From NCBI RefSeq assembly GCF_056712565.1, contig NZ_CM160072.1: a stretch of DNA of 64,000 nucleotides. One strand, written 5' to 3'. The notes below the pieces were generated by a model. That model was not told where the DNA came from, did not search any database, and saw only the letters and a list, made by a program, of their open reading frames with translations. The translations under genes and the position numbers were made by a program. Every line of letters starts with the position of its first letter. The first letter of the stretch is position 1. This document shows positions 3,316 through 12,797 of this stretch, one piece after another.

Positions 3316-4003
3316 TCGGAGCAAATTTTTGAATAACGTTGCTCAGGCACTGGGGCGCCCGCTGCGACTTGAACCGCAAGCAGAAGATGCGCCGCTTAAC
3401 AACTATGCTAACGAGCGGCTTACCCAACTTACCCAACAGCAGCGCTGTGACGCGTTTATCCAGTTTGCCAGCGATGTTATGTTGACGCGCTGTGAACTGA
3501 CCAGCGAGGCGAAGGCGGCAGAAGCTGCAATACGTCTGTGTAAAGAGCTGGGAGATCAGTCGGTCGTGATTAGTGGTGACACGAGGCTGGAGGAATTGGG
3601 GATTAGCGAACGTTTGCAGCAGGAATGCAATGCCGTTGTTTGGGATCCGGCGAAAGGTATTGAGAACATATCACAAGCAGAGCAGGCTAAAGTGGGCGTC
3701 GTATATGCTGAATATGGTTTAACCGAATCGGGAGGCGTGGTTCTTTTTTCCGCCGCCGGGCGCGGGCGTTCATTGAGCCTGCTCCCGGAATCTTCTCTTT
3801 TTATCCTGCGTAAAAGCACAATCCTGCCGCGTGTAGCGCAACTCGCAGAAAAATTGCATCAGAAAGCGCAGGCCGGTGAACGAATGCCGTCATGTATTAA
3901 CATCATCAGTGGTCCCAGTTCAACGGCGGACATTGAGCTTATCAAAGTCGTCGGGGTTCATGGTCCGGTGAAAGCGGTGTATCTGATTATTGAGGATTGC
4001 TGA
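3308..4003 (+). CDS. ykgG: LutC-like protein (YkgG)
   Basis: In-frame ATG at 3308 overlapping the ykgF stop gives 231 aa (MDNRSKF...), the expected size; the longer ORF from 3155 is an upstream extension inside ykgF. Confidence 0.85.
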   Translation: MDNRSKFLNNVAQALGRPLRLEPQAEDAPLNNYANERLTQLTQQQRCDAFIQFASDVMLTRCELTSEAKAAEAAIRLCKELGDQSVVISGDTRLEELGISERLQQECNAVVWDPAKGIENISQAEQAKVGVVYAEYGLTESGGVVLFSAAGRGRSLSLLPESSLFILRKSTILPRVAQLAEKLHQKAQAGERMPSCINIISGPSSTADIELIKVVGVHGPVKAVYLIIEDC

Positions 4004-4245
4004 GAGAGATATGTAGTCTGGACATAAACCTGAAGGCGGTATACGAGGTTGTGAATAGCGTTAAGGACAACCTGACTTAACCCCGTTCCGTCATGGTTAT
4101 GCAGCTCTTCTGTAAATATCCTGACATTAATAATGCCAGGATATTTACAGTTAAAAAGACAGGAATCCATTCCTGAAGACGGGCTCCCTTCCCGGTCACT
4201 GTCACTATAGTTTTATACAGGCACTCTCTGTCAGAATGCTGTTTA

Positions 4246-4914
4246 TTACTGCCCAGAGTTTTGTTGGTATTCATCTACCATTTTTTTGACAAGGCAAAAC
4301 ATCACAGAAATCACAATACTTAGAAAAAATCCCAGAGCCAGGCAAATGGCAGCAGGGTATTTATTTTTTATTTCTGGTGAGCTTATAGTGACACAGCCAT
4401 CACCGTTCGGATACAGTGACCAGTTCCTGGTCAGGTATATCATTTTTGTATAAAGCTCACTGTTAATTGCTGAAGGCGTTTGTATCTCATCGAGAACTTG
4501 CCTGCCATTATGGTATTCTGACGCATACCATTTGATGATAGACGCCTGCACGCGAGATATTTCCGCTTCAGCAGTTGGTAAATCTCTCTTATTTCCTGAC
4601 CATTCCAGCTTTATTTCTCTGTTCTTGACATCTGGGCTGGTCTGAAAAAATGTAGTAATTCGCTGAATAACATCTTCAGTCATTGTGGTCTGACAGGCAA
4701 AGTTATTATTGCTATCACAGCTAACAAGTATGCCTGGTGTTGTCTGGTTTATTTTTAGACTGTAAGTCACTTTTATATTATCTTTATTGATATACAGAAA
4801 CAACAGCACCATTACCATACAGATAGCTATAATAAAAAGGATAACACGAATCTTTTTCTTCAGATAAAATAAAATCTCAATCAGATCGATATCCTGTTTG
4901 ATTTGTTCATTCAT
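4246..4914 (-). CDS. ykgH: Predicted inner-membrane protein YkgH
   Basis: 222-aa ORF with an N-terminal hydrophobic segment; position after ykgG matches K-12. Confidence 0.85.
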   Translation of the reverse strand: MNEQIKQDIDLIEILFYLKKKIRVILFIIAICMVMVLLFLYINKDNIKVTYSLKINQTTPGILVSCDSNNNFACQTTMTEDVIQRITTFFQTSPDVKNREIKLEWSGNKRDLPTAEAEISRVQASIIKWYASEYHNGRQVLDEIQTPSAINSELYTKMIYLTRNWSLYPNGDGCVTISSPEIKNKYPAAICLALGFFLSIVISVMFCLVKKMVDEYQQNSGQ

Positions 4915-5097
4915 AATATATCCAGAAAATGAAATCTGTCGCAGATAAGATTGTATTAATAGTCTGTATCAGGAATGTTCAGGGTAAATATCAGCAAAAA
5001 GCCAGCATCATGAATACTGGATATTTATAGCCTGCAGGCAGCATACTGCTGCCTGCAGGGGGTATAACAGTCGACAGGGGAACCGACTGCTTTATTC

Positions 5098-7395
5098 TTA
5101 CCAGGTCACATTGATACCAACTACACCCTGTAGCGGGTTCTCAATGTCGTCACCTTTGGTGTAGTCAAGGCTTGCATATGCTCCCATGTTTTTGGTGATA
5201 TCAGCCTGTACACCTGCACCCACGCGGAATGCTGCACCGTCAATGCTGGCATTGACAGACTCATCACCCAGACGGACTTTGTTGCCATCAGAGAATTCGT
5301 TCAGTGCGGCCAGATTCAGATAAGGTTTAACGGTCGCGTTGCCCACAGCGAAGTCATAACCCACGCGCGTACCGGCCTCACCCAGCACAGAGTTATAGCT
5401 GTCAGAATGAACGTCCACGCCGTTGAGTTGATAATCCACACCTTCCAGAGTCAGAGCAGACAGTTTGGCATATGGCTGAATAAACAGGCCATTACCGTCT
5501 TTCCATGTGTAACCGCCTTTAACCATCGCACCAAAACCATTGGTGTTAAAGTCAGCTTTGATGGTACCGCCACCATTCATCAGGCGAACATCTGCCGTGT
5601 TGCTGTAGTGACCAAACTGTGCAGCAGTATCAATGAAGATACCGTTGTTATACTGGCGGCTCAGGTAAGCGTGGAAGCTGTAACCTTCAGTGTCACCTTT
5701 GCTCTGCATGGTAGTCATGTCACCTTTCGCAGAAGACATCGCCACACCGGCCAGCCAGCTACCATCTTCAGTCATGAAGCGGGTATCACCACCCAGCATT
5801 ACACCATTTACATCCAGGTCATAGGATGCATTTCCCGCGGTGGTATGTTTCTGTTTACCGCCAAAGTACTGAATCCATACGCCACCCTTGTCATTTTCGC
5901 TCAGACGGACAGCATCCTGACGGGCGGAGAGCGTGTCAGCCTGCAGATTAGCGACGTTAGCCGGAGCAGCTGCCATTGCCTGAATCACGGAGCTGGCGTT
6001 GGATGCTTTATGCGTGTTTTTTACGAAATAAAAGTTACCATCAGCTCCCTGTGTCAGGTCATATTGATACAGACCACCTTCCGTTGTGCCTGTGGCTTTT
6101 AGAGTGCTGTCTTTGCCGGTAGAAATAAATGCCGTTTGTTCATTGATAAGATCCAATGAACCCGCACTGTAAACACGCAAGTCACCGCTCGCTTTACCGC
6201 TGATATCCAGAGTGTTTTCAGAAGAGGCATCAACAATCAGAGTGCCGTTTTGAGAAGCAAACGTGCCAGTATTGACTGTAGCCTTCGTGATATTAACCGT
6301 ACTGTCTTTTACTGCCAGAGCATCAACAGTTGAGGAACCCGTAACATTCCAGACAGACCCGTTTTGCAGAGATACACTGGCATCTCCTGCCCCTGAAACT
6401 TTGCCTTTCCAGACTGAACTATCGGAAAGATTTATATCCAGATCACTACCCGCTTTATCGCCGCTATTGAAGGTATAAGCATTACCTTCCCAGTAAGAGC
6501 GGGCAACGTTCATATTTACATTTGTTGTGGTACTGGCTGAATTCTCGCTTTCAGAAAGGGCCAGGACATCAGAGTAGATGGTTGAATCAGCAACAGACAA
6601 ATTTAAATTTTGCGTTGCTGAACCTGCGCCTTGTGCCGAAGCAGAGGCATAAATTGTTTGTTTATTATTAGCCGCCCCAATTACTGAGCCATCCTTAATA
6701 TTCAGGTTGACTGTATGAATTCCCGTCTTATTCCCGGCAGTAACTATTGTTTCAATCCCGCCATTAATAATATTTGAGTCAGCAAGGGTGATGTTGTCGG
6801 TTGCATCACCGTCAAAACCCTGCAACAAATTACCCTTTTGAGCAAAAATTGCCGTAGAGCCGTTGCTGTAACTCTTATTACCTTGAGCATTTATGGTTGT
6901 ACCATTGAGCGTTAAATTATTTCCCGTGGTCGCTTCCAGAGATATCCCTGTCGCACTACCTTTTTCATTTTTTGCAACGAAATTACCGCCATTAACAACA
7001 ACATCGCCAGTTGAATCAATGACCATTGCAGTCCGGACATAGGTGCCTTCACCTTGAGCTGTGATGGTGGAGTCTGTAGCATTAATCACAACATTTTTGT
7101 TACCACTAACTTTTACACCTTCAACGAAATCTTGGTTTACCGTTGATGCGGCGGTAATATCGTGACCGCCAAAAGTAACATTAAGGTCTTTATCTGAATC
7201 TGACGTTTCAATTGTTACGGCTGTAATCTTGTTATCACCGTTAATAACAACATCTTGATCCAGAGTCGTCTTCTCTGTATTCAGCGTAACCGGATCAGTT
7301 GATACCGTGCTATCAGTAGCGAATGCTGGTGCAGAAAGAGCCATAACAATAGCTGTCGCTAATGCGCTGCGGTAAAATGCCTTACTGTTTTTCAT
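5098..7395 (-). CDS. upaE: Type Va autotransporter: signal peptide, N/T/G/S-rich beta-helix-like passenger, C-terminal beta-barrel ending in W. Possibly UpaE
   Basis: Long ORF; start chosen at MKNSKAF (7395), which has a GGAG motif 9 nt upstream and a classical signal peptide; passenger is rich in short N/T/G repeats; C-terminal roughly 280 aa is barrel-like and ends GINVTW. Symbol by locus architecture from memory, not alignment. Confidence 0.7.
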   Translation of the reverse strand: MKNSKAFYRSALATAIVMALSAPAFATDSTVSTDPVTLNTEKTTLDQDVVINGDNKITAVTIETSDSDKDLNVTFGGHDITAASTVNQDFVEGVKVSGNKNVVINATDSTITAQGEGTYVRTAMVIDSTGDVVVNGGNFVAKNEKGSATGISLEATTGNNLTLNGTTINAQGNKSYSNGSTAIFAQKGNLLQGFDGDATDNITLADSNIINGGIETIVTAGNKTGIHTVNLNIKDGSVIGAANNKQTIYASASAQGAGSATQNLNLSVADSTIYSDVLALSESENSASTTTNVNMNVARSYWEGNAYTFNSGDKAGSDLDINLSDSSVWKGKVSGAGDASVSLQNGSVWNVTGSSTVDALAVKDSTVNITKATVNTGTFASQNGTLIVDASSENTLDISGKASGDLRVYSAGSLDLINEQTAFISTGKDSTLKATGTTEGGLYQYDLTQGADGNFYFVKNTHKASNASSVIQAMAAAPANVANLQADTLSARQDAVRLSENDKGGVWIQYFGGKQKHTTAGNASYDLDVNGVMLGGDTRFMTEDGSWLAGVAMSSAKGDMTTMQSKGDTEGYSFHAYLSRQYNNGIFIDTAAQFGHYSNTADVRLMNGGGTIKADFNTNGFGAMVKGGYTWKDGNGLFIQPYAKLSALTLEGVDYQLNGVDVHSDSYNSVLGEAGTRVGYDFAVGNATVKPYLNLAALNEFSDGNKVRLGDESVNASIDGAAFRVGAGVQADITKNMGAYASLDYTKGDDIENPLQGVVGINVTW

Positions 7396-7436
7396 GAAGA
7401 AATTCTCCATTCTGGTAACTAATTTCAATTTCCCAC

Positions 7437-8198
7437 TTATTTATATTTATGCAGAGATAAAGCCTGCGTCCCTGCATTTACCACCACGGAATACCTGTTG
7501 GTATTTCCGTTTTCACGCAATGTCATGGCATTCGTTGTTTCCAATGCATTTCCATCACCGTGAAAATTATTGCTGCTCAGCAGCAGGGCTTCCCGCAATG
7601 ACATGCTGTCCGGTATTCCCCAACGCTTTTTTAGCGACTGCTCGGCAAGCCATATCTGTCTTATCCCCGTTTTGAGAAACTGCGCACTGTATTCCCAGCT
7701 GTGTCCGGCAAGAAGTAACGACAACACCTTCTTTTGCTTTTCCGGGAAGCGTTCTGACATGACGATTGTCTTTGTGCGGTTATTCACCTCTTTCATAAAG
7801 ACAGAGTAACTGTCCATAACTGGCAAAATTTCTGCATGCTTCAGCCCTGAAAACCCACCAGAGGCATTTGCAATACTGATGACACGCTCTACTGACATTC
7901 CTGGTTTCAGTAACCTCAGGTTTTTGAGAACGCCAGAAATACTCACATCCGGTGGCAGAAAAAAGGGCGTGACGCACAACACCACCACGAATGAGTGATC
8001 CCGATAAAATCGGAACCACATTTCAGCGCATTCGGCAGGTCGCCCTGCCGATATCACGACACTCTGTGGCCTGTGCCGCAATTTATTGCGTAACTCCTCT
8101 TCTGTTCTGATGCAGGTAACATTGCCGACAGAACCGGTTGATAGAGCTGCGAACTGCGCTGGTACAATTCCTGAGGGACAGAAAAGAACGAAACGCAT
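7437..8198 (-). CDS. Hypothetical regulator with a degenerate LuxR/GerE-type HTH region
   Basis: 253-aa ORF directly upstream of the autotransporter (8-bp gap); segment LSLLLAGHSWEYSAQFLKTGIRQIWLAEQSLKKRWGI loosely resembles a LuxR HTH. Confidence 0.5.
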   Translation of the reverse strand: MRFVLFCPSGIVPAQFAALSTGSVGNVTCIRTEEELRNKLRHRPQSVVISAGRPAECAEMWFRFYRDHSFVVVLCVTPFFLPPDVSISGVLKNLRLLKPGMSVERVISIANASGGFSGLKHAEILPVMDSYSVFMKEVNNRTKTIVMSERFPEKQKKVLSLLLAGHSWEYSAQFLKTGIRQIWLAEQSLKKRWGIPDSMSLREALLLSSNNFHGDGNALETTNAMTLRENGNTNRYSVVVNAGTQALSLHKYK

Positions 8199-8351
8199 CC
8201 TTCCCTCACAGATGTCAGTACGCCAGCACGCTGTACAGGCTGTACAGCGTGCCTCCCAATCCTGCAGCCCAGAACAGTAGAAATATTTTGGCTCCTACAC
8301 TGTAGCGAGTCCGTATGCGCCGCAGTGGGTGGTAGTAACAACGCTGCTGTG

Positions 8352-9146
8352 TCATAACAATCCTGGTCTTTTTTTAGATATATTTTTTCTTTGTCCGGAA
8401 AGTACTTTTCCGGAAATGGCGTCAGAATTTATTGATTCACCAACGGCAACTTTCTCTGGATAAAGGATTCCGGATACCATGTTCTGCACATACTGAGTGA
8501 GTCGATGAGCGGAATGTTGTCCGATATATTTTGCATGTAGCCGTATATTCCGTTTCACTCTGCTGTCACCGCATCCCGTATAGAGCAGCCTGAAATCGCT
8601 CAGTGTTCCCAGTCCAAGTTTCATTAAAGCCCGTGTGGCAATCGCATGCAGGGTCTTTGAACTGCGTTGTTCATAACGGGCAATCTCACTGAAACTCATG
8701 CCCTGCATCAGAATCTTAAGCACGCTCAACTCCCGTGCAGTCAGGAGCCAGAAATCGCTCATATCGCCGGGCAAAGGACGTAGTAACCAGCGGATAATTT
8801 GATTCTGATAACGACTCGCTGTCAGCATGGTGCCGATGCGTGGGAAGCCGTTATACAGACTTGCAGCAGGAGCATTATCGAACCAGTCGGAGTCACCGGT
8901 CAGGCAGACCTGCCATTGCCCGGCATCACTCCGCAAACGGGCGAGACAAGCCAGAAGAACCAACTCCCCCGAAGGAAGCGAAGGGATATCAGCTAACAGG
9001 TAGCCACAGGAGGTCTTTAAAACGAATTCAACCTCTGTAGTGACGTTGCTGTACACCCGCACGATATACCTGTCCGTTGGGATGAGAGACTCCAGTGCCA
9101 GCCTGGTGAACTGACAGGCACTGATAATAACCAGAGGCTTCTTCAT
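8352..9146 (-). CDS. ipuR: LuxR/GerE-family transcriptional regulator, possibly IpuR
   Basis: 264-aa ORF; clear LuxR-type HTH (LTARELSVLKILMQGMSFSEIARYEQRSSKTLHAIATRALMKLGL); first gene downstream of the candidate invertible element. Symbol by architecture only. Confidence 0.65.
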   Translation of the reverse strand: MKKPLVIISACQFTRLALESLIPTDRYIVRVYSNVTTEVEFVLKTSCGYLLADIPSLPSGELVLLACLARLRSDAGQWQVCLTGDSDWFDNAPAASLYNGFPRIGTMLTASRYQNQIIRWLLRPLPGDMSDFWLLTARELSVLKILMQGMSFSEIARYEQRSSKTLHAIATRALMKLGLGTLSDFRLLYTGCGDSRVKRNIRLHAKYIGQHSAHRLTQYVQNMVSGILYPEKVAVGESINSDAISGKVLSGQRKNISKKRPGLL

Positions 9147-9172
9147 TCAGACTCGTCCACGCCATTGCTACA

Positions 9173-9465
9173 AAACCTGACATTTTGATTCAAAATGTCA
9201 GGTTTGGTTTAATAGCCTGAATATTTAATTTTCTTGGAATATAAATCTGATTTGTTTGATTTTTATTGTTTTTAATTTTGTATTATTTAACAATATGGGC
9301 GAAAGTTAATCACTGGTATGACCTTTGTGATTAATCATTTCAAATCATGGGGTTATTTTACTTTAGCTAGAAATATCAACATGTTATGTGTTTTATTTAA
9401 TTGAATGGGCTGTTTTTTTATGGAAGAATTGAGGAAAACGTAGGAATCTGACATTTTGAATCAGA
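9173..9465. promoter_or_regulatory. Candidate invertible promoter switch: 12-bp perfect inverted repeats (tcaaaatgtcag at 9190-9201, ctgacattttga at 9448-9459) flank a 246-bp AT-rich segment; a 33-bp perfect palindrome spans 9173-9205
   Basis: Repeats read directly from the sequence; element sits between the recombinase stop (9476) and the LuxR gene start (9146), the same layout as fimE-fimS-fimA. Confidence 0.6.
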
Positions 9466-9475
9466 AGGTACTGTT

Positions 9476-10039
9476 TTAACGAGGCTTTTTTTTCCACACC
9501 CCTTTAAAACGAGCAGCATTACTGGCTGTGTATCTGACAGTATGCTGAATATTTCGATGACCCAGGTAATCCTGAAGTAGTCGGGTATCGACACCATTGT
9601 CAGCCAGAGCAAAACCACAGGCATGACGTAACATATGAGGATGTGCTTTTACAGCTAATCCTGCACGTTTTCCAGCCTCACGAATGATAGAAAAAAAATG
9701 TTGTCTGCTGATAGGGCGGCGTTTCCGGGAGAGAAAAAGCCAGTCTCCTTCAACTCCGTTTTCAATTAACTTCCTCTGCTTAAGCCACAACTTGATCAAA
9801 TTATATTCATCAGGAAGAAGAGGATGTGTTGTCGAGAAACCATTTTTAATACGCCGAATATTAAGTTGTTTTCCAGATGCATCAATATCGGATAAACGTA
9901 AATCAAGAAGTTCACTGGCCCTAAAACCGTGAATGAAAGCCATCATAATCAGACAGCGATTTCTTTCAGGAAAGGACATGCTCTGGGCTGCATCCATCAG
10001 CCTGTAGACTTCATCCTGTGTGAGATATTTTCTCGTCAT
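9476..10039 (-). CDS. ipuA: FimB/FimE-family tyrosine site-specific recombinase, possibly IpuA
   Basis: About 187-200 aa with FimB-like motifs (HGFRASE, GFSTTHPLL, HPHMLRH, CGFALA, DTRLLQDYLGHRNIQHTVRYTASNA); no fimbrial genes adjacent. ATG at 10039 preferred; alternative GTG at 10078. Confidence 0.8.
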   Translation of the reverse strand: MTRKYLTQDEVYRLMDAAQSMSFPERNRCLIMMAFIHGFRASELLDLRLSDIDASGKQLNIRRIKNGFSTTHPLLPDEYNLIKLWLKQRKLIENGVEGDWLFLSRKRRPISRQHFFSIIREAGKRAGLAVKAHPHMLRHACGFALADNGVDTRLLQDYLGHRNIQHTVRYTASNAARFKGVWKKKPR

Positions 10040-11108
10040 ACGCCACCGTGTACAGTTGTAAAAAAAAGAGAGGCACACCCAGATAAGTATGCCTGCAATC
10101 AGAACGTTATCGATGTAATCTCATTATCTCATTAATAAGATTTTTTGAATAGTAGTTCTACGCAACAGATTAAATATGAACTATTTATTGTGCAGCTTTT
10201 CTACAAGTCATTTTTAATGCGTGTTTTTATCTACTATAATGTGAAAAAAATAAATATTAAAACTATGAGTGACAGGTCGTGTGGGATGTGTATTACGTCT
10301 AATGCTTTAGTAATTTTTTATTATTTCTGAGATATTTAACATCATTTCCTGTGAGATTGTCTTGTTGTGTATCTAATTGATTTTAATTTTGTTTTTTTTG
10401 ATGCATAAATTTGGATGATAGAAAGTAAGATTAGCTTAATATCAATGATATGAATTTATAAATACATATTGTTGCAAGGTGTTCTTTACTTTTTTGGTCG
10501 TTAGTAAATCATTGTTAATGGGTTCTGTTCATAAATTAAAAATATTCATTTAAATGATTTTTACTTTTTGTATATCTCAATTTGTTTATTTTGCATTCAT
10601 TTGATGGAGAGTATTCCAACACTTTTTATTTTTCGCAAAAAACTTATTAACAACTTTTTATTATCAATTGAAAATTAATGTAAACTAAAATGTTAGCGAA
10701 GCGATAATCTTGTGCTAAAAAATATTTAAGCATGATGATTAATTAAAGAAGAGTAAAAATAAATCGCTGCTAATAAATTATACGAACCGTGTTTAAAGCT
10801 CCATGTGGTTTTGGTCTGACTTATTTTTGTACTCGTTACAAGAACCCTTTTCGTACATGCTAACCGTGAGCGGGAATGAACAGGTAACCATAGCCAGGAA
10901 CATTAGCGGCGTAATTCTTAAGCTGAGTGGTATTTCATCTGTAGTTTATCTGTGTATGCATAGCACCTTCATCAGCCAGATTGAGCAAGTCAGCTTAGAA
11001 TTTGCTGGTGAGATTGTCACGATGAAGCATGAGAGTTACCTCAGTGTTTTATATAAGGATTCGGTCCTCATAGTAGAACGGTAACTCTCAATCTGATAGG
11101 TTCCTGAG

Positions 11109-12797
11109 TCAGTTCACATCACGACTCATTTTTTTCGCTCTCACCGGCATCCCATTTGCCACAAAATATCTTGCCGTGCTCCTCGGCAACGCATCCTTCC
11201 CGCGAATCATATCCGCCATTTTCTCGCCAATCATAATCGTCGTGGCGTTCAAATTGCCGGTGATAATCTGCGGCATAATTGACGCATCCACCACGCGCAG
11301 GCCTTCCAGCCCGTGTACGCGGCCTTCGGCGTCAACCACTGCCATCTCGTCATAACCCATTTTGCAGGTACCGCACGGGTGGAAGGCGGTTTCGGCGTGG
11401 TTACGCACGAACTCATCGAGCTGCTCATCCGTCTGGCATTCGACACCGGGGCTGATTTCGCGGCCACGATACTGATCCAGCGCCGGTTGATGCATGATCT
11501 CCCGGGTGATGCGAATTGCGTCGCGGAACTCCTGCCAGTCCTGCTCGTGCGACATGTAGTTAAACAGAATCGCCGGATGCTGGTGCGGGTCGCGGGATTT
11601 AATCCGCACATGCCCACGGCTTGGCGAGCGCATCGATCCGACGTGGCACTGGAAGCCGTGCTCTTTCACTGCGTTCGAGCCGTTATAGTTAATCGCCACT
11701 GGCAGGAAATGGTACTGAATATTCGGCCACGCAAATTCCTCACGGCTGCGAATAAATCCGCCTGCTTCAAAGTGGTTGCTGGCACCAACGCCGGTGCCGC
11801 CAAACAGCCACTCCGCACCGATTTTCGGCTGATTCCACCACTGCAGGGCAGGGTAGAGGGAAACCGGTTCTTTGCACTCATATTGCAGATACATCTCCAG
11901 GTGATCCTGAAGATTTTCGCCGACGCCAGGTAATTCATGCACCAGCGGAATATCAAACTCCGCCAGCAGTTCAGCGTTGCCGACGCCGGAGCGTTGCAGG
12001 ATCTGCGGTGAAGCAATCGCGCCTGCACATAACAGCACTTCTTTATTCGCCGCCGCGCGGGTCGGAATGGTGCTGTCGCCTTCCAGCCACTCGACGCCCA
12101 CCGCGCGTTTGCCGTCAAAAAAGATGTGATCGGTCATGGCGTGAGTACGAATGGTCAGGTTAGGGCGCGATTTGGCCTGATCGAGATAGCCACGCGCGGT
12201 GCTGGCGCGACGGCCATGCGGCGTGACGGTGCGATCCATCGGGCCAAAACCTTCCTGCTGATAGCCGTTGAGATCGTCCGTGCGCGGGTAGCCCGCCTGC
12301 ACGCCCGCTTCAATCATCGCTTCAAACAGCGGATTGACGCCGGGTTTGGAGGTGGTGACGCTCACCGGGCCATCACCGCCGTGGTAGTCGTTCTCGCCCA
12401 CATCGCGAGTCTCGGCCTTGCGATAGTAGGGCAGGCAGTCGAGATAACTCCAGTTCTCCAGACCAGGTGCTTGTGCCCAGTTATCGAGATCCAGCGCATT
12501 GCCACGGATGTAGCACATACCGTTGATCAGCGATGAACCGCCCAGACCTTTGCCGCGTCCGCACTCCATGCGGCGGTTGTTCATAAACGGTTCGGGTTCC
12601 GTCTCATAGGCCCAGTTGTAGCGTTTGCCCTGTAGCGGGAACGCCAGCGCGGCGGGCATCTGGGTGCGGAAGTCAAAGCGATAGTCCGGGCCGCCTGCTT
12701 CAAGCAGCAGCACGGTTGTGTTCGGATCTTCAGTCAGACGGGTAGCGAGAACGTTGCCGGCTGAGCCGGCACCAATAATGATGTAGTCAAATTGCAA
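11109..12797 (-). CDS. betA: Choline dehydrogenase BetA (GMC oxidoreductase, FAD-binding)
   Basis: N-terminal GAGSAG FAD motif; apparent TTG start at 12797 with AGGAGG 5 nt upstream; the ORF-track ATG at 12842 would lie inside betB. Confidence 0.9.

Follow-up and report, generated by a model that had tools for sequence, protein, structure and literature searches.

In a 64,000-nucleotide stretch of contig NZ_CM160072.1 (NCBI RefSeq assembly GCF_056712565.1), referred to as the window in the following, ykgH (4246-4914) and betA (from 11109) flank four minus-strand open reading frames (ORFs) in the six-frame ORF list, which raises the question what occupies positions 4915-11108 and whether it works as a phase switch. 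An earlier, sequence-only reading had proposed a module of recombinase, invertible promoter element, LuxR regulator and autotransporter and had expected it to be described already; both the logic of the module and this expectation were borne out. We are highly confident that the region is PAI-X, a pathogenicity island of extraintestinal pathogenic E. coli, in which the Fim-family recombinase IpbA/FimX flips the promoter element hyxS (~0.28 kb) and thereby switches the hyxR operon. According to the passages in which later papers cite the original work, PAI-X with its invertible hyxS promoter was described in 2012 (PMC6083910; PMC6458436; PMC8777976), and its detection in the window adds nothing as a discovery. 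To the known island our analysis adds the finding that the hyxR-proximal recombination site is palindromic, a census of switch states and a recurrent, precise deletion of hyxS.

The 6,194 bp from 4915 to 11108 are approximately 100% identical to the corresponding DNA of UTI89, NU14, S88, APEC O1 and further strains, and the CFT073 copy of the island, located at 410-415 kb in the order ykgH-hyxB-hyxA-hyxR-ipbA-betA, is 99.5% identical to the window; the comparison with UTI89 and CFT073 that the sequence-only reading had proposed thus yielded near-identical matches. At least 80% of the region was found in 1,830 of the 5,426 complete E. coli genomes that formed the sample for our census. RefSeq names the genes on the identical UTI89 segment hyxB (outer membrane autotransporter), hyxA, hyxR (LuxR family regulator) and ipbA, the last of which is entered as a tyrosine-type DNA invertase with the aliases HbiF and FimX. 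The coordinates originally read for the four ORFs agree with this annotation (Table 1). Gene set, gene order and insertion site between ykgH and betA are the same in the window, UTI89 and CFT073, and compared with PAI-X of these uropathogenic E. coli (UPEC) strains, including its 16-bp repeats, the system in the window shows no difference. The region had also been described as missing from K-12, which is correct for the island and slightly too generous for its extent: the K-12 ykgH-betA spacer comprises only 212 bp, and homology to K-12 stops at window position 5024 and restarts at 11022, leaving an insert of about 6.0 kb (5025-11021) instead of the entire 6.2 kb.

Table 1. Coordinates of PAI-X features in the window
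Feature	Position	Strand	Basis
PAI-X island	5025..11021		absent from K-12 ykgH-betA spacer
ipbA (= fimX = hbiF), Fim-family tyrosine DNA invertase, 187 aa	9476..10039	minus	RefSeq, NCBIfam, alignment
ipbA-proximal repeat arm CTGACATTTTGAATCA	9448..9463		12 bp past ipbA stop; within imperfect dyad ~9445-9475
hyxS interior, AT-rich, 246 bp, presumed carrier of the hyxR promoter	9202..9447		inverted or absent in other genomes; literature
hyxR-proximal repeat arm TGATTCAAAATGTCAG	9186..9201		perfect 16-bp inverted repeat
Perfect 33-bp palindrome (16+1+16), hyxR-proximal recombination site	9173..9205		AAACCTGACATTTTGA-T-TCAAAATGTCAGGTTT
Outer half of palindrome, direct repeat of 9448-9459; deletion joining point	9177..9188		junctions read in five genomes
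hyxR, LuxR-family transcriptional regulator, 264 aa	8352..9146	minus	RefSeq, Pfam GerE
hyxA, 253 aa, without sequence-family match	7437..8198	minus	RefSeq; predicted fold
hyxB = upaB, type Va autotransporter, 765 aa	5098..7395 (longer ORF to 7428)	minus	RefSeq, TIGR01414, PDB 6BEA
Non-coding region of ~1 kb, 23-33% G+C, 5' of ipbA, within island	10040..11021		G+C profile
Terminator-like hairpin in K-12-shared block adjoining left edge of island	5002..5020	minus	

The sequence-only reading had likened the locus to the ipuA-ipuS-ipuR-upaE module of uropathogenic E. coli, and the resemblance is real insofar as both loci combine an invertase, a spacer of about 0.3 kb, a helix-turn-helix regulator and an autotransporter in like order, following the same logic with paralogous recombinases (53% identity to IpuA, 48% to IpuB). 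However, CFT073 carries both loci at separate sites, PAI-X between ykgH and betA at 410-415 kb and the ipu locus in the argW island at 2.75 Mb (2.756 Mb), for which the coordinates were taken from PMC7545054 and where the genes for UpaE and a helix-turn-helix regulator are annotated together with ipuA and ipuB beside the dsdCXA genes. Beyond the recombinases, hardly more than generic domains are shared: HyxR matches IpuR with 33% identity over only 51 residues of the DNA-binding motif (E = 0.001), and HyxB matches UpaE, a giant autotransporter, solely in the barrel (24% identity over 292 residues). The ipu locus has two recombinases and no counterpart of HyxA, ipuB is missing from the locus in the window, and the ipuS repeats measure 7 bp and reach into ipuA (PMC6083910), whereas those described here measure 16 bp and lie outside ipbA. 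Separate loci in CFT073 and the weak similarity of regulator and autotransporter refute the identification with the ipu module, to which we assign practically no probability. The annotation is hence corrected to FimX/hyxS instead of IpuA/ipuS, and the exact site coordinates can be used for the analysis of sequencing reads.

IpbA is a small, catalytic-domain-only invertase of the Fim family. It scored above the cut-offs of the NCBIfam models NF007370 'tyrosine-type DNA invertase' (251.6 bits, cut-off 221) and NF007371 (233.2 bits, cut-off 222) and shares 55% identity with FimB, 51% with FimE, 52-53% with IpuA and 48% with IpuB. When aligned, all five proteins share the residues R40, H135, R138 and Y170, and the homology to FimB and FimE on which the sequence-only reading had staked its interpretation beforehand is therefore clear, including the conserved R-H-R-Y residues. 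An alternative GTG start codon would extend the ipbA ORF to 10078. The window encodes an intact IpbA, identical to the protein of UTI89 and CFT073, and as reported in those parts of later papers that refer to the primary work, hyxS adjoins fimX in both strains, FimX alone inverts hyxS there and the inversion governs hyxR (PMC6083910; PMC6458436; PMC8777976).

The G+C profile of the island has two dips, at 9150-9450 (29%) and at 10050-10950 (23-33%), and the intergenic region 9147-9475 between hyxR and ipbA has 29% G+C overall. Base-by-base reading of this 329-bp spacer revealed an inverted repeat whose 16-bp arms match perfectly, with TGATTCAAAATGTCAG at 9186-9201 and its complement at 9448-9463; the AT-rich element had originally been bracketed at 9173-9465, right to within a few bases. 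The longest inverted repeat in 300 dinucleotide-preserving shuffles of the spacer was 7.9 bp on average and 12 bp at most, indicating that a repeat of 16 bp is far beyond chance, and its length agrees with that reported for the hyxS repeats (PMC6083910). A repeat finder additionally returned a 33-nt imperfect inverted pair (9172-9204 and 9445-9477) and a near-perfect palindrome at 9170-9208. The ipbA-proximal arm was conserved across every lineage that we examined. The hyxR-proximal arm is part of a perfect palindrome (Table 1), which as single-stranded DNA folds into a hairpin of -15.1 kcal/mol (z = -7.6), and the imperfect dyad at the ipbA-proximal site folds at -2.4 kcal/mol (z = -0.15). 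Since the hyxR-proximal site is palindromic, the core CTGACATTTTGA lies in both orientations relative to the ipbA-proximal site and forms a 12-bp direct repeat at 9177-9188 and 9448-9459, or 16 bp with one mismatch. The centres of the two sites read TGATTCA (hyxR-proximal) and TGAATCA (ipbA-proximal), with the middle base as the sole difference.

To survey the switch in other genomes, the segment 9189-9460 was inverted in silico, and the native (8990-9660) and inverted versions were searched at a coverage of at least 80%. The switch region is carried by 1,891 of the 5,426 genomes, 1,778 of which have the orientation of the window, corresponding to 94% of the carriers and 99% of the intact switches (1,778/1,794). 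The inverted orientation was found in 16 genomes, and E-93 and CUVET18-565 additionally have inverted junctions with incomplete flanks, so that both orientations of the proposed invertible element occur in nature. APEC O18, AVS0744 and Eco_24-2013 equal the in-silico inversion base for base. Immediately interior to the repeat, positions 9202 and 9447 differ (G/A), and this marker moves along with the inverted segment, indicating that the crossover is confined to the 16-bp repeat. Across 2.9 kb of flanking sequence, just 3 positions distinguish APEC O18 from UTI89, and the inversion in this lineage is accordingly recent. We propose that IpbA/FimX recombines the two sites flanking the AT-rich hyxS element at their common perfect 16-bp inverted core (9186-9201 and 9448-9463), whereby inversion would point the hyxS promoter toward or away from hyxR. 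hyxR, and probably hyxA and hyxB/upaB further downstream, would thus be transcribed in a bistable and heritable manner. HyxR with its LuxR-type DNA-binding domain and, judged from its predicted fold, HyxA may then alter envelope traits, with HyxB/UpaB acting as surface adhesin.

The window orientation is likely the default OFF state. The reference genome of CFT073 shares this orientation, and recombinase-null derivatives of CFT073, obtained without selection for a particular hyxS state, have been described as 'hyxS locked OFF' (PMC6083910). The T1-antigen switch of Salmonella and the switch of a related locus (designated L019 and L020 in our analysis) align better to native hyxS (z = 3.2 and 4.5) than to the inverted version (z = 1.5 and 1.0), and the deposited Salmonella T1 sequences are OFF in nearly all isolates (PMC11294581). 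Together, the orientation in CFT073, the 94% majority and the alignment to the T1 and L020 switches point to OFF. Two phage studies treated the wild-type orientation as default and observed an enrichment of the inverted orientation under phage pressure (PMC12361893; bioRxiv 10.64898/2026.05.13.724931). Several observations weigh against our reading of the locus. Assignment of the OFF state is indirect, and the evidence for inversion comes from comparison across genomes and not from within this strain. That the promoter lies inside hyxS is taken from the literature (PMC6083910, PMC3789825); a consensus promoter scan of the switch returned 3 sites, compared with 4.8 expected from shuffled sequences, and identified no promoter. 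In the orientation of the window, TTAACT-16-AATAAT (9309-9282) is the only candidate that faces hyxR; since neither CFT073 nor a divergent lineage preserves its -10 element, it was not used for the ON/OFF assignment. A joint regulation of hyxA and hyxB with hyxR is likewise presumed; the genes are separated by 153 bp (hyxR and hyxA) and 41 bp (hyxA and hyxB). A terminator scan of the switch did not help to locate the promoter either.

The strong bias towards one orientation could also be explained if the switch were a fixed relic in this strain, with the orientation differences among assemblies reflecting rare, ancient events instead of active phase variation. The 1,778 of 1,794 intact switches in the same orientation would fit this view, as would the damaged recombinase genes of several inverted genomes, six of which have a truncation by ISEc8, while APEC O18 has a frameshift. 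Nevertheless, the window has an intact ipbA encoding the same protein as UTI89 and CFT073, for which inversion of hyxS was demonstrated experimentally (PMC6458436). Inverted copies also occur in close kin of native-orientation strains, exemplified by APEC O18 and UTI89 with their 3 differing positions in 2.9 kb, and an experiment with phage pressure captured inversion in real time (bioRxiv 10.64898/2026.05.13.724931). A relic therefore seems very improbable to us.

In the six genomes with the ISEc8 insertion, which are mostly dog-derived and include Eco_24-2013 (L003 6487-9125), the PAI-X variant, which shares about 95% identity with the window, retains only the last 114 bp of ipbA beside this IS66-family element. 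The switch is inverted in all six and presumably locked in this orientation. In the ST95-like strain APEC O18 (L002 1940-2551), which also has the inverted orientation, a C inserted towards the 3' end of ipbA changes GGTGTGG to GGTGTGGG and lengthens the ORF to 612 bp, running into the switch. MSB2_1A, another genome in the inverted state, has an IS26 at the locus. Inverted assemblies may thus be enriched for damaged recombinase genes.

Besides inversion, the census uncovered a precise loss of the switch. Both flanks were kept in 1,879 genomes, the switch interior in only 1,801, and a 40-nt junction query detected an exact 271-bp deletion of hyxS in 89 of the 1,891 carriers (approximately 5%). 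The junction has the sequence CATTGCTACAAAACCTGACATTTTGA[A/T]TCAGAAGGTACTG, with exact matches to the version with central A in 18 genomes and to the version with central T in 69. FDAARGOS_1304 lacks exactly 271 bp, with 9188 joined to 9460, and has one other mismatch to the window. Junctions were also read in clone D i14, Trh52, APEC E12049 and 2009C-3133, and in all five genomes hyxR and ipbA were intact and 58 bp apart. An assembly artefact was rejected as cause of the deletion, because the same junction is present in 89 independent finished genomes and ipbA and hyxR are intact in the five examined. All switch-bearing lineages that we examined have T in the left and A in the right centre; consequently, the two junction types differ only by the side of the central base on which the exchange was resolved. 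In 2.9 kb of flanking sequence, FDAARGOS_1304 has no difference to UTI89 and clone D i14 has one difference to CFT073, and Trh52 (A-type) forms a third haplogroup with APEC E12049 and 2009C-3133 (both T-type). These flanks indicate that the deletion arose independently in at least three haplotype backgrounds. The T-type deletion genomes are mostly poultry isolates. We found no report of a loss of hyxS in the literature that we consulted, although the most relevant primary papers lay outside that reading.

How the deletion arises is less certain than its existence. In lox and FRT sites, which are recombined by Cre and Flp, a symmetric central overlap deprives the site of its direction, and inversion and excision both occur. 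The left hyxS site is symmetric save for its central base pair; the comparison with symmetric lox or FRT spacers is an analogy only. The palindrome places the core in direct orientation to the ipbA-proximal site as well and would make an irreversible 271-bp excision possible. We infer that FimX would be the catalyst of this excision. If the overlap is TGATTCA, aligning it directly with TGAATCA would leave one central mismatch, and segregation of the resulting heteroduplex would yield both junction types.

Alternatively, the segment may be lost without any recombinase by replication slippage or short-homology recombination between the 12-bp repeats CTGACATTTTGA, an event that the hairpin-forming palindrome may even stimulate. 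This explanation, which counts against a role of FimX in the deletion, is a serious contender to which we give somewhat less than an even chance, since a perfect 12-bp direct repeat (16 bp with one mismatch) brackets the deleted segment, the left site folds into a strong hairpin and both junction types could also be obtained across the imperfect repeat. On the other hand, the junctions lie precisely within the core sites of the recombinase, and the sole two types observed (A, n = 18; T, n = 69) are those expected from a heteroduplex over the 7-bp overlap TGA(T/A)TCA. Slippage would moreover require the crossover of the T-type to fall within 3 bp despite the adjacent block of 12 bp, and the deletion has recurred in at least three haplotypes. 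On balance, we modestly favour FimX over slippage as the origin of the hyxS deletion. The further-reaching idea that the phase switch has a built-in, recombinase-driven route to self-destruction, in which FimX synapses the direct sites and irreversibly excises hyxS to generate permanently locked lineages, is put forward tentatively and appears to us rather less probable than its contrary. The recurrence of the deletion suggests that locked hyx states repeatedly arise and persist in nature, which could have a bearing on the outcome of phage therapy and on hyx phenotypes in clone D and the poultry-associated group.

Of the two regulators, HyxR has a match to the Pfam family GerE (PF00196) at residues 135-181 (E = 3.9e-6). 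The sequence-only reading had also described HyxA as a second LuxR-like ORF, a designation that failed every test at the sequence level and is supported by the predicted fold only. HyxA had no match in Pfam or NCBIfam, either alone or across 10 homologues, and its similarity to HyxR was not significant in BLASTP (E = 0.29) or hhalign (E = 0.11). An AlphaFold2 model, calculated from an alignment with homologues of 25-54% identity (pLDDT 78.5, pTM 0.73), combines a (beta-alpha)5 domain with a C-terminal domain of four helices, and the best PDB matches of this model in Foldseek were the full-length proteins FixJ, VraR, StyR, RcsB and LiaR (E = 7e-6 to 1e-3 over approximately 210 columns). The TM-scores of these matches were just 0.3-0.5, as expected when the angle between the domains differs. 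HyxA is thus predicted to combine a receiver-like domain with a LuxR-type DNA-binding fold in the architecture of NarL/FixJ-type response regulators, making it LuxR-like at the level of the fold only. By reading of the model rather than superposition, strand 3 spans residues 47-51 (VVISA) and leads into GRP without any acidic residue at this point, and the sole invariant aspartate of the alignment, D84, falls after strand 4 of the model, so that HyxA may lack the usual phospho-acceptor aspartate. Two weak matches of HyxA (P0029 and P0030) were rejected as distant homologues because they are error-ridden E. coli assemblies. Homologues of HyxA adjoin Fim-like invertases in the Salmonella T1 locus and in locus L020. 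The fold-level annotation of HyxA is a small addition to the knowledge of the island.

HyxB matches the autotransporter barrel model TIGR01414 (E = 2.6e-69) and, with its barrel, BrkA (E = 7e-23), and its passenger domain matches PDB entry 6BEA, 'Autotransporter protein UpaB' (E = 7e-282), in line with the published statement that hyxB is upaB (PMC3789825). Both hyxR and hyxA influence the length of O-antigen chains as well as resistance to serum (PMC3789825), and the literature also ties the hyx regulators to nitrosative stress and survival in macrophages. Inversion of the hyx promoter was shown to confer transient phage resistance (PMC12361893; bioRxiv 10.64898/2026.05.13.724931). The interest in the hyx system derives from these effects on serum and macrophage survival, from its cross-talk with the switching of type 1 fimbriae and from the recent link to reversible phage resistance.

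The fimS switch of E. coli K-12, operated by FimB and FimE, likewise places genes for small Fim-family invertases next to a promoter element of about 0.3 kb that can be inverted. In contrast to hyxS, which has 16-bp repeats and a single recombinase and drives a regulator, fimS is bounded by 9-bp repeats, is served by two dedicated recombinases and directly drives the fimbrial operon, and the half-sites of the two elements have little in common (PMC6083910, PMC6458436). FimX acts on fimS as well (PMC6083910). Closer to PAI-X is the T1-antigen switch of Salmonella (STM0716-STM0718), which has an orthologous recombinase with 72% identity (PMC11294581), a HyxA homologue (39%), an inverted repeat of 16 bp that shares its centre, TGATTCAAAA, with hyxS, and a switch interior that can be aligned to hyxS in the same orientation. 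It differs from PAI-X in governing a polysaccharide gene cluster instead of an autotransporter, and its regulator-proximal site is an imperfect palindrome only. Locus L020 (812-1135), from an SRA assembly, has the arrangement invertase, switch, regulator and HyxA-like gene with a perfect 16-bp inverted repeat, CTGGTTCAAAATGTCA. Its regulator-proximal site retains palindromic arms of 12 bp, whereas the 9 bp at the centre, TTGAACCAG, lack symmetry, indicating that a near-symmetric centre is not general in the family.

An Rfam scan of positions 4000-12000 gave no match, and the four island proteins had no match among the PADLOC defence models. The AT-rich region upstream of ipbA (10040-11021) has neither an Rfam match nor a substantial ORF; RefSeq places a hypothetical ORF of 44 aa there in some strains. 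Nowhere else in the island do haplogroups diverge as much, with approximately 88-89% identity compared with about 99% in hyxR and hyxA. At 10071-10094 on the minus strand, approximately 20-30 bp upstream of the ipbA start codon, a terminator-like hairpin is followed by a T-run (AGGCATACTTATCTGGGTGTGCCT CTCTTTTTTT) and is also kept in AVS0744; such a hairpin could insulate ipbA from, or attenuate, transcription arriving from the long AT-rich region. Outside the island, the N-terminus of YkgH has a sub-threshold match to the NCBIfam polysaccharide chain-length determinant model TIGR01006 (E = 0.009, 15 bits compared with a cut-off of 296), of note since hyxA and hyxR mutants change O-antigen chain length; it is probably due merely to a common transmembrane segment. 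On the same side, a terminator-like hairpin shared with K-12 abuts the left edge of the island (5002-5024), suggesting that PAI-X was inserted between betA and its apparent downstream terminator, which now sits 3' of hyxB.

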